This document shows, in pieces, positions 27,884 to 59,040 of a DNA stretch of 61,140 nucleotides. The DNA is taken from positions 2,092,707 to 2,153,846 of the forward strand of contig BFEA01000044.1 in the NCBI GenBank assembly GCA_003427395.1. Reading direction: 5' to 3'. This stretch comes from Chara braunii (taxonomy: Eukaryota > Plantae > Charophyceae). The position numbers and the translations under genes are program-made. Every line of letters starts with the position of its first letter. The first letter of the stretch is position 1. The notes under the pieces were generated by a model, which was not told the DNA's origin, made no database searches, and saw only the letters and a program-made list of their open reading frames with translations.

Positions 27884-28198
27884 TCGCCCAGACATAGTTC
27901 ACCATCTTACCTATCCCAGCAGGCATGCTCACACACAACCCCCTCACGACAGGTCGTGGTTGGTGGACGCTGGACCCGCAGCCACCCCGGTTACTCAGCT
28001 TTCTCCCGCACTGTGGACCAACCCAAAAGGTGATCTCCCAAGGTCCTCGACCGCTGCGACGACCACCCATGTTCGACGTCATTGCAAGTGAATCAGGCCC
28101 CTCGGTCCTGACGCCGGTTTCGAAGCCGACCTTTGAGTCAAAGGCACAAAATAAAATTGGTAATAATAATAATAGTAAATTTATGAATGCATAAAAAG

Positions 28199-28232
<34 letters not shown>

Positions 28233-28483
28233 ATAATAATAATAATAAAAGCGGGGGAACGCAAAAACTGAGGGGACGAGGGGCTACATGTCCCACTGGC
28301 CTGCGACGCCGCGCATACCCACGCCACGCATGGTTGCGCCCTGTCGTCAATACCCCGCGCGCCCCGCTTACCCAGGTGAGGACCTAAGCTTCCTCTCGCG
28401 CGCGCCGTCAGGCGGGTAAGGCTGCACTGGTGTGATTTGCAGAAAATACGCCAAATACCCTTGTAAGGGTACTTGGTACGACA
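27884..28483 (-). mobile_element. 5' fragment of a related LTR (D), interrupted by B
   Basis: Starts TGTCGTACCAAGTACCCTTACAAGGGTATTTGG at 28483; outer flank is acgt. Confidence 0.8.
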
Positions 28484-29618
28484 ACGTATCGTCAAGGAGG
28501 GCGGTGACACAGTCGCCTTCCATCCCTATTGAGTGGGGATACACGACTTCTCTCCGTCCGCTTCGTGGTTCAACAATTTTCACTCAATTTTTTACTTTCT
28601 TTCGAAGTTCTTTTCATTCGCCCTCGCGGTACTTCCTCGTCGTCGGTCCCGGAGTCAGTTTCCGGCCAGGTTAACAGACGAGCAAATGGAAAAAATAAAC
28701 ATAAAAATAAATCAACAAAATAAAAGTAGTAGAATTGAAGAGGACGAGGACCTGTCGACGCCCTCTTGGTCTTACCAGTCGAACCCAGGTTTGGGCCCGT
28801 CCGGCAAACCAAGGGGGACAGTCCCTTAAAACCCTCGACCCCTCAGTTCCGCTGATCTCGCTCCTTTACTCCACCGCCGTGTGCCGACCTCGAACCCCAA
28901 ACCTGTCGCTTGAAAGTCCAGTACCGTAACCATTAGAACTAGGCCGAGGGCTGAGCTAAGTAGGCATGAACTTGCATATGATTAGTCGCGGGCCCGTGAT
29001 TAGTCCTACCCATACAAAGCAGGCCTCCGCCTCGGCCTACCAGCCAACTTCCTGGTCGTCAGAAAACACCGAGATGCCACCCGCGCCTAGGATCGTAGCT
29101 ATCTGGTATCCTGGTCATCAGGCGCACGACATACTTTGTCGAACTTCCCGACCTTCTCCCTTGCTAGCTTTGCCAATGCGACGCCTTTTAACATGTCGTC
29201 AAGCACAATTTTCCTGCGCATGTGTAAAGTAAGATCTTTATCTCCCTCGCGATAAGCCCTGCCAGAGGTTGGGCTAGTTCGTGGAGTAAAGCTTGCCTCT
29301 ATAAAGAAAAGAAAAATATAACCAAATTGAAAACTACAGAAAATGATAACCGGAACCTATGGCTTTGATGTCTTCCGAGGCCCTGATGTTGTCGAGGACT
29401 AACGGTCACTTCACAGTGCAACGCAATAACTCGTGCCCCATACTCTCTTATTTAGTCGTACTTGACTCGGAGTCTCGCCAAGAGCGAGGTTGTGGAGGTG
29501 AGCATCCTGACGGGACTTGCCCCATCAGCGTGCTACATTGATCAAGGAAACACCGTGTGCGACTCGGACTTTCAAAAAAATGACGGCAAATACCCTTGTA
29601 AGGATGTTTGCTATGACA
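28484..29618 (-). mobile_element. 5' fragment of a related LTR (F, E-subfamily), interrupted by D
   Basis: Starts TGTCATAGCAAACATCCTTACAAGGGTATTTGCC at 29618. 28795-28960 is homologous to 45961-46125 of E. Outer flank is gcgt. Confidence 0.8.
28884..28947 (-). ncRNA. tRNA-like cassette in LTR F
   Basis: Minus strand ggccTAGTTCTAATGGtta...CTTTCAA...GGTTCGAGG: A box, TTC anticodon-like loop, B box. Confidence 0.6.
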
Positions 29619-55839: not shown

Positions 55840-56245
55840 AAATCCTGAAGTGAGAGTTTTTGGCAGTCTGAAAATCCTGAATGGTTCTGAAGTGGTGAGC
55901 GGTCTGAAGACCCTGAAAACCACTTGTTTAGGCAGGCTGCATCCTGAAGTGTTGAAGGGTGTCCTGAAGTGGTCAAGTGAGAGTTTTGGCCAGTCTGAAA
56001 ATCCTGAATGGTCCTGAAGTGGTGAAAGGTCCGAAGACCATAAAAATCACCCTTCACAACTTGAGGATGCAACCTTCCTAGACAGGTGGTTTTCAGGGTT
56101 TTCGGAGCTTTCACCACTTCAGGATCATTCAGGATTTTCAGACTTGAATGGTCCTGAAGTGGTGAAAGGTCCGATGACCCTGAAAACCACCTGTTTAGGC
56201 AGGCTGCATCTTGAAGTGGTGAAGGGTGTCATGAAGTGGTGATGA
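55840..56245. repeat. Foldback array of ~130-bp units in mixed orientation
   Basis: Forward units at 55840-56055 and 56145-56245; 56060-56143 is the reverse complement of the same unit. Confidence 0.85.
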
Positions 56246-58104
56246 AAAATACGACTATTGTTAACCTTCTCTCTCCGCCACTTGTCTAGCCCATGCCAAG
56301 ACAGAGTCCCAGCCGTGCACTTTTGACTCTCACCTCCTGAATCTTGGTCCAGGTGAGCTTGCTCGCGTTCCACCGTATCAGTGGAGATCTCTGCCTCGTG
56401 GTAAGCGACTGTTACCTAGACCTGAGCAGTGACGTTGTCCCTCACGTAGCGCCTCTTAGCCCGATTCTTTGCCTCAGTGACTACCACCTGCAACTTAGGG
56501 TCCGTCCTCATCTCCTCCTCCCTATCCCCTTCGACATTGATCTTCAACTTGGTCTCTACTCCCCCATCGTAGTTGAGAATGGTAGTGTCCAAGGCCCCTC
56601 CCCAGATATCGACCTCCAGCGCGTTAGGAGGTTCCAACAGTCTGACCTATAGCCATACAAAGTCATGACCGCACACTTTCAGAATAGCCAAAGCTCGACG
56701 TCTGGCGCCCCGCACACAGATAGCTTGCCACCTTCTTACTTCACCGCCCTGCACTCCCTCCTCAATTTACCCGTATTGGCAAGACGAGGTAGCCTGCGTG
56801 AGCCTATTGGCCAGCTACACGTAACGCGACCGTCTCCGTTTTTATAGGATTACTGTGGGTTGCAGTCCTTGCGATGTGGATGAGGGACTTGAACCACCTT
56901 TTTTTTTTTTTAATTCAGCGTATTGGTAGTTTGTAATCCGAAACTTAATAACATAAAATAAGATAAAATAAAACCAAAACCAAATAAGGAGTCGAGGACC
57001 CCGACGGGCATATCGTCCGTAACGCCTTTGACTGTCAATACCAGTCGCCTTGTTTCTAGCGTGAAGCAACCACGAATTCGAGACAGTGGTCCCATAATGG
57101 GATACCGACGACGCTGCTCTCCCTTTAAAAACAGAGCATTAGACTTTCTTTGACGGGGACCCATGTCTGATGGCAGGGGGGGGGGATTATGACCTTCAGC
57201 GGGGGGTGATAACCTCCTTGCTGAAGCGGTCGCGGGTTGCCCCCTTTTGGGGCCATCTGTAATAGAATGAAACCTGAAAAGTCGATCAGTTTGAGTCACT
57301 CGTTTGAAATTCAGGTTCAAAAGCCAATTGTTCGCTCCCTCGCGAAACACCGATGAGAGAGAGACGAAAATTAAAAGGTCAACTAAAAAAAAAAAAAAAA
57401 AAAGTATGATGGTAATGATAATAATAACGTTAATAATAACAATAAGAAGGGGAAAAAAAAGAAAAGAAAAAAAACCTGACAACATTTAGATAACTCAGAG
57501 TAGCGATTCGATTCAAGGTGCGGACCCGCTGCGAAACTTTTCCTCATTTTCCCCTTCTCTTCTCTTTAAATTTTCCCTTTTCTTTTTCGAACTTTTACTC
57601 CTTACTTGATTGCGACCGCCTGACCTATACACACCACCTTTAATCTGTCAAAAGGGGATTAATGCACGGTAGAGGACACTGTGTCAACCTTGCTACCCTC
57701 GCGTCCCCGCGACCATAGACCGACACTGCTCCGCAGTACTGCAGCACGCCAAGCCTGAGTAGGCTGACGAAGAGTCCCCGTGGCACACTATGAAGAAGCG
57801 GACGCGCCTTGTACAATACAGAGGTTTAAAAACATAGTATATCTGATACCCGGGGATAGTTTTTTCCTCCCTCAGTCCTTTCTTTGCCCCGACAACGATT
57901 GCAGCACTCTGCATGCATCCCGTAACCTGTCTAGAAAGGGCCCCAACGCGCACCACTATGGTCTTTTCACAATCCCGTCCCTAAGCATACCCGGTCACAA
58001 CACAACTAAGTACCGAACCTGCTAGATATTTGTAGGCTAAAAGGCTTGGTGCGCTGTGGGAAGTGAGCGGATGCCTGGTACACAGTGGAGGTAGATGAGC
58101 TGAT

Positions 58105-58682
58105 GTCTAGTACGTAGCGGAGGGCCCGGGGACTGTGCCCTCCGACAGCGTCGCCTAACCGATTTTCCATGTCGGAAGGTAAGGGTTGGATACTGAGGGG
58201 ACTAAGAGGGTTTCGTTTATTTTGTTTTGTATTTATTTTTTTATGTTTTTAGTGTGGTGTAACGCGTGGTGAGTGGGATGCGTCCTAGTCGACGGACGAC
58301 GAGTTGCGCTTGGGACTTCAGCCCCCCAATGCGTCAGTTCACGTGCAGTTCCGATAGAGGTGTGGGACTGCGCGTACCCCCTATGCAACAAAGTACGAGA
58401 AACGCCCTCAGCTGATCCACCTCTACGATTGTAACTGATTAGCTATCGTGTTGTGGACTGGTAGCTCGACGGGGATACGCCCACCGAAGGGAGGTGACAA
58501 CTCCCGCAGGTGAGGTAAAGTTGTACCTCGCATAGACCCTATTCTGTCGTAGGGGCTCGCAAGAGGTATGGCTGGCGCACTCGGCCGGAGCGGCTACGAA
58601 AGCTCCACTCGTACCGCGATAAGACCAAATCCAGTGTGACGCGGCCGGGACGGTCCCCCTTGAGAGACCCGTGTGTTCGACA
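58105..58682 (+). mobile_element. 3' end of another related LTR (G); 5' boundary not found
   Basis: Homologous to 52960-53589 and ends gtgttcGACA. Flank is gcgg, with no PBS. Confidence 0.8.
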
Positions 58683-59040
58683 GCGGGGAGCACAAGGGCA
58701 GGCGCTGGCCTCCAAAAAAAAAAAAAAGTAATTTTATTGGAATACAAGAGTTTTTTCTTTTTGAAATCCGAATAGAAAGGGTACACGTTGTATTCGAATA
58801 CGTGTTTGTGTTATATTCGAGGTGCTCTGCCATTCGAGAAAAGTGGACCCGCACCGTTTCAATTTTAAAAAAGGACCGCGGCCTCCTCGGCCTCCTACGG
58901 GCAGCTATGGGTCCTACGCGGGCCTGGCCTTTGCAAGGCCCCAAGACCCAAAATGCCCACCCTCCCAACGACCACTGACATTGAAATTTGAATGACGTTG
59001 AAATGTCTCCGGGGGGGAAAACTCATCCCTGACTGATGGG

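Follow-up and report, generated by a model that had tools for sequence, protein, structure and literature searches.

We examined the insertion sites of a set of large repeat units, named A to G, in a 61,140-nucleotide stretch of the genome of the charophyte alga Chara braunii (assembly GCA_003427395.1, contig BFEA01000044.1, positions 2,092,707 to 2,153,846 of the forward strand). This whole stretch is called the window, and all coordinates count from its first letter. It is eukaryotic repeat DNA interrupted by scaffold gaps. The units are non-coding, 8-11.5 kb long and have TGTC...GACA ends, and each of their six outward-facing sites carries CG in the middle of the four adjoining bases (NCGN). 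They are likely giant long terminal repeats (LTRs), some of them solo, that belong to a non-chromovirus Ty3/Gypsy family of a charophyte.

Repeat units and their two kinds of terminus

The unit termini were located by profile searches that were blind to the flanking bases, and two recurring kinds were found. The first kind, 'H', consists of TGTC with a hairpin just inside it, the stem of 9-11 bp lying inward of the TGTC. Five strong H ends were detected, at 14204, 27883, 28483, 29618 and 33460, together with a degenerate one at 45582 in unit E (profile E=0.39; CATC where TGTC is expected). The second kind, 'R', is a module conserved over about 350 bp and terminating in CGACA; it was found at 17263, 44921, 53589 and 58682. 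The profile search revealed no further strong H or R end in the window. The two kinds differ from one another, and the inverted repeat that they have in common is just 5 bp long.

Four units lie on the minus strand. Unit B (17263..27883; 10,621 bp, TGTC...GACA) is likely a 5' LTR, and unit A (4420..14204), which has its H end at 14204 but misses its outer (R) end, is likely the 3' LTR of the same element, B-A. Beyond B follow the visible 596 bp of unit D (27888..28483; H end at 28483) and the visible 1131 bp of unit F (28488..29618; H end at 29618). On the plus strand, unit C (33460..44921; 11,462 bp) is complete from H to R and unit E (45582..53589; 8,008 bp) runs from its CATC-type H end to an R end, both being likely solo LTRs; of unit G (58324..58682) the R end was found and the H end was not. 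Unit E is collinear with L001, a locus of the D family elsewhere. Because the homologous D sequence in L001 continues through the position at which B is inserted, B is nested in D, and D in turn is likely nested in F.

A hairpin is present in every intact H end (14172-14198, 27851-27877, 28451-28477, 29586-29612 and 33465-33494). The sequence families part ways about 35 bp inside the H end with the hairpin kept, and in the hairpins of F and C both arms have changed with pairing still preserved; the hairpin could possibly serve as an integrase-binding or priming signal. The R-end module is 70-82% conserved over four otherwise unlike units (17263-17623, 44564-44921, 53212-53589 and 58324-58682) and contains GGTAA donor-like sites, and it may possibly carry a conserved RNA or splicing signal. 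When the H-end pattern was searched for elsewhere, it gave no locus in viral contigs, none in prokaryote genomes and one in metagenome contigs.

Target sites centred on CG

Read on the plus strand, the four bases outside B, which is inserted in D, are TCGC (27884-27887), those outside D, likely inserted in F, are ACGT (28484-28487), those outside F are GCGT (29619-29622), and those outside G are GCGG (58683-58686). Unit C is bordered by ACGA on its left (33456-33459) and again by ACGA on its right (44922-44925), and unit E by CCGT (45578-45581) and CCGC (53590-53593), which match at three of four bases. NCGN was thus observed at six of six outward sites and at eight of ten termini. The inner junctions of A and B, which face each other across 14205-17262, read GTAT (14205-14208) and CACC (17259-17262) on the plus strand and contain no CG. 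These 4-mers, including the two discordant ones, are as a first-pass annotation of the stretch had given them. Its judgement that six of six is hardly a matter of chance also held, since with a CG frequency of 0.046 in the window the probability is 1e-8. It is 5e-7 if any dinucleotide at any of three positions is allowed, and 2.5e-7 for six of eight sites if the inner ends of A and B are scored as misses.

The length of the target can be read from unit C, whose two flanks repeat ACGA in direct orientation without a mismatch, and a repeat of 5 bp would not fit. A perfect 4-bp duplication was seen at C only, that of E being imperfect; B, D, F and G display one end each, and for these we infer a target duplication. 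The staggered cut of 4 bp centred on CG that had been suggested for these sites is supported. In this DNA, CG makes up 19-21% of the pyrimidine-purine (YR) steps, which gives a probability of about 5-8e-5 that six of six YR steps would be CG, so that flexibility of the central step alone would be insufficient and a CG-specific read-out would also be required. A 7-base similarity beyond the H ends of A and B was set aside as chance, because the flank of B is D sequence.

Other copies of the H end were looked at in assembled contigs from three DNA runs (X1, X2 and X4) of one sample, aligned to 28260-33900. This comparison covers the H ends, one of the two end types. Since the window may itself derive from these runs, they contribute extra loci but no extra organisms. 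Among the breakpoints listed (18 of 2346), 30, 32 and 29 contigs in the three runs departed at the terminus of D, 28483, while 40 (X2) and 42 (X4) departed at 28486, past the CG, and 32 (X4) at 28487. Agreement with the consensus was merely 0.34-0.35 in the groups at 28486 and 28487, as is the case for many different flanks. With random flanks about 0.4 contigs would be expected to depart at 28486, as against the 40-42 observed, an approximate value that depends on aligner clipping. At 28483 the consensus, which blends outer flanks and inner junctions, had CG in positions 2-3 in all three runs. In addition, L001 is flanked by GCGG, and in one contig another repeat is joined to the H end of C at CCGG. 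Beyond the window, too, a large number of H ends carry the CG bias.

Within the same aligned interval, 30620-31470 is a repeat of very high depth, with the summed contig depth reaching 41,000; no terminus was detected in it, and a C-family insertion is present in another of its copies. One RNA run placed 14 reads on 28260-33900, which is uninformative on expression.

The probable B-A element and its candidate partner proteins

Two 8-kb direct repeats, A and B, enclose an internal region of 3058 bp (14205..17262, minus strand), both junctions of which are the ones without CG. A 12-base motif beside the inner end of A reappears in the consensus of contigs that leave an H-type terminus (X1 and X4), from which it follows that the inner junction of A is multi-copy internal sequence. 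A decayed open reading frame (ORF), in sense to the element, begins 535 bp past the inner end of B, at 16728, and its start (16495..16728, minus strand) is 62% identical over 78 amino acids to P0003 (CBR_g53845) at the N-terminus of the latter; P0003 is a predicted protein of Chara braunii with Gag-like segments farther along, which are leads only. When long proteins were searched for the internal ORF with a word index, no match was returned. The first-pass annotation had regarded B and A as the two LTRs of one element and had taken the CG-free inner junctions as independent support. The recurrent motif and the sense ORF speak for 14205-17262 as its internal part, but the element is not a clean one, for the distal 1.8 kb of A is E-like and the outer end of A is missing.

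A and B have about 8 kb in common in direct orientation, and of 5087 columns aligned between them 244 (4.8%) are mismatched. A is a mosaic, being B-like over 6209-14204 and E-like over its distal part, 4420-6209. The switch coincides with a mid-unit motif that is conserved in C (41480-41530, plus strand), E (49969-50019, plus), B (19933-19983, minus) and A (6203-6253, minus) and that in B, C and E precedes a site resembling a splice donor (AG/GTA); this motif is a candidate for the U3/R boundary. The likeness of A to E ends abruptly at 4420, and to the left of this position we found neither an R end of A nor a continuation of D or F; the break possibly reflects recombination, deletion or mis-scaffolding.

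Directly after the mid-unit motif of B stand three plant-type TTTAGGG telomere repeats (19888-19908). The distal parts of the units hold tandem arrays (41864-42594, 5545-6133, 51221-51797 and 18892-19525), with a repeat unit of 71 bp present ten times in C and of about 120 bp in A and E. A fragment of eukaryotic small-subunit (SSU) ribosomal RNA has been captured in B (26150-26500, antisense on the plus strand; E=4.5e-18), with a paralogue near 12550-12700 in A. Near G, a decayed coding stretch (56269-56586, minus strand) belongs to no Pfam family and shares 64% identity with a predicted Chara protein that has an internal repeat, and to the right of G a bacterial-type SSU ribosomal RNA match below the gathering score (59014-59500) could mark organellar DNA.

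Searching with P0003 retrieved 27 Chara proteins, many of them with protease, reverse transcriptase, RNase H and integrase in Gypsy order (PR-RT-RH-INT), and for P0005 the best solved relative was Ty3 Gag-Pol. The candidate integrases (P0005, P0009 and P0027) contain H2C2, DDE and a GPY/SH3-like end. In three of the proteins examined the integrase homology ends right behind the GPY/SH3-like segment, where P0027 terminates altogether. We found no match to a chromodomain or a methyl-binding domain (MBD) in any of the 27 candidate partner polyproteins at E<=0.001 (Pfam), nor in five candidate polyproteins at E<=1. A single-sequence fold of P0003 was unusable (pLDDT 39.7), and no relative turned up when viral contigs were searched with a profile built from the candidate polyproteins.

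Interpretation, alternatives and significance

We favour, with a probability of about 0.62, the reading that a Ty3/Gypsy integrase staggers its cuts by 4 bases and chooses the central CG by DNA sequence and by shape or bendability, without a methylation-reading domain, and that the 8-11.5 kb units are its giant LTRs and solo LTRs. According to this reading, paired integrase active sites would attack both strands 4 bp apart. For such a spacing the DNA would have to be kinked sharply at its central step, which would favour pyrimidine-purine steps, and additional base contacts would restrict the choice to CG. The mobilising enzyme would probably be the Gypsy integrase of P0005, P0009 and P0027. 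C and E would have become solo LTRs by LTR-LTR recombination, and B-internal-A would be a non-autonomous derivative whose A arm either underwent later recombination with a copy of the E type or reflects mis-scaffolding; at the candidate U3/R boundary, template switching would mix subfamilies.

Several observations weigh against this interpretation. The units exceed about twofold the maximum LTR size given for plants, quoted as about 5 kb (PMC6317226), and the distal part of A is unlike that of B, which is unexpected for a freshly inserted element. The internal region has no clean primer-binding site (PBS) or polypurine tract (PPT), and a self-priming search gave just two 9-mer matches with one mismatch each. 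Neither gag nor reverse transcriptase nor integrase was found in the window, with no Pfam match at the curated cut-off for 150 of 215 stop-free frames, a sensitivity below which decayed pol could escape. As for the proteins, the window matches residues 1-78 of P0003 only, a segment that is absent from the polyprotein N-termini, and P0003 resembles a gene model stitched from several pieces and is possibly chimeric, so that the polyproteins are candidate partners only. The integrase C-terminus is absent from many of the 27 proteins, which are partial models. Finally, transitions between A and B fall at 52 of 391 CG, 32 of 417 CHG and 48 of 1270 CHH positions, a methylation-type decay.

The target preference has counterparts among known systems. 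Phygy, a non-chromovirus Ty3/Gypsy lineage of the moss Physcomitrium, has a 4-bp NCGN duplication in 186 of 186 elements, a tRNA-Trp PBS and no extra polyprotein domain (Neumann et al. 2019, PMC6317226). The Chara elements are like Phygy in their 4-bp NCGN target choice and streptophyte host, and the lack of chromodomain and MBD matches in the 27 candidate proteins, many of them partial, would be a further likeness if these are the partners. They differ in that Phygy is described as 7.7-10 kb in total and mostly coding, whereas single units here are 8-11.5 kb and non-coding, and in that no PBS was identified in the visible, decayed internal part. In target choice the Chara elements work as Phygy does, but, with sizes that differ, membership in the lineage is only a possibility. 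ZAM, an LTR retroelement of Drosophila, has the target CGCGCg, and its integrase nicks plasmid DNA sequence-dependently in vitro (PMC2527525). It resembles the Chara case as an LTR-element integrase with a CG-rich target, but its consensus is described as longer and stricter, with extra binding sites in the target, and its host is an insect. Among retroviruses with 4-bp duplications, the four examined (PFV, MoMLV, PERV and XMRV) all favour a central YR step (PMC4422553), an enrichment that is modest, 63% over random for any YR, in contrast to the near-fixed CG here. Four-bp duplications with GC-rich centres are reported by Jedlicka et al. (2019, PMC6911290). In chromoviruses such as moss RLG1 and MAGGY the chromodomain is described as the known route of a Gypsy integrase to heterochromatin, and target-site duplications are mostly 5 bp (PMC6317226); the candidate partners here, unlike these, have no chromodomain match, P0027 ending past the GPY/SH3-like segment. 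A literature search, with subscription papers and repeat databases outside its reach, brought up no publication that deals with the Chara elements. The NCGN preference is already published for moss Phygy, as are CG-centred targets for Ginger1 and ZAM, and hence is not new.

The first-pass annotation had further suggested that the integrase reads methylation and steers insertions into silenced DNA, and had proposed that the partner integrase be inspected for chromodomains or MBDs. None was found among the 27 candidate polyproteins, and with Phygy described without an extra domain and the ZAM integrase acting sequence-dependently in vitro, the suggestion is left unsupported. A form of it that dispenses with a reader domain is nevertheless worth weighing: in the same elements the integrase core could favour methylated CpG, through altered bending or a methyl contact, and so bias insertion to silenced repeats. 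The decay between A and B means that these LTRs were likely once methylated, and the sites hit in D and F quite probably carried methylation as well. The CG preference goes beyond the plain YR rule, and at least two of the six sites lie inside other LTR-like units. Against these points, no reader domain was found in the candidate polyproteins, F is inserted in low-copy DNA, and nesting is expected anyway because the window was chosen as a nest. Neither Drosophila nor plasmids grown in E. coli are known to carry CpG methylation. ZAM has the target CGCGCg and its integrase nicks plasmids in vitro (PMC2527525). We consider this alternative unlikely, and keep it at that level because, according to a review, an avian retroviral integrase acquired strong target preferences in vitro when C was methylated (PMC11054761). 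Its fuller version, in which a Gypsy lineage with 8-11.5 kb LTRs has an integrase core that itself prefers methylated CpG and funnels copies into silenced repeats without chromodomain or MBD, possibly in common with moss Phygy, appears slightly less likely still.

Another explanation that we find improbable is that an integrase-like transposase of the Ginger1 kind mobilises the units, which would then be non-autonomous DNA transposons, with B-internal-A as a composite or recombinant. Ginger1 has TGT ends and target-site duplications of CCGG in 75% and CCGT/ACGG in 24% of cases (Bao et al. 2010, PMC2836005), and shares with the Chara units, beside these ends and the 4-bp CG-centred duplication, a Gypsy-type integrase with a GPY/F motif, on the Chara side that of the candidate partners. 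C and E appear self-contained with target-site duplications, the units would be very large as LTRs, and PBS and PPT are not evident. Ginger1, however, is described as a cut-and-paste element with terminal inverted repeats of 40-270 bp and fixed outer target bases, whereas the Chara units have 5 bp inverted, no such repeat and free outer bases. Moreover, the flanks of B taken alone mismatch (CACC and TCGC), the inner junction sequence reappears in many contigs, and the internal ORF ties the element, weakly, to Gag-like proteins. GingerRoot was rejected in view of its reported 6-bp duplication and terminal inverted repeats.

It is very unlikely that the CG is part of the element, with GACA-N-CG as its true terminus, instead of target DNA. 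The palindromic CG fits either reading, the largest group of contigs departs at +3 and four units display one end only, but at C both variable bases also agree as a direct repeat (1/16 by chance) with no duplication farther out, ends of the form TG...CA are canonical for an integrase, CG is lacking at the inner junctions, and the homologous D sequence in L001 crosses the site of B.

If the sequence- and shape-reading Gypsy integrase that we favour is correct, the NCGN preference of one moss lineage would also mark an abundant family of a charophyte alga. The size of the LTR-like units is a more surprising side result than the target preference itself, and the preference would give a clean annotation rule for giant non-coding ends that would be missed by standard LTR finders with short size limits. 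If methylation mattered after all, the elements would represent a new route to heterochromatin targeting. In the favoured case, Phygy and the Chara family would form a natural pair for locating the CG-reading residues of the integrase.

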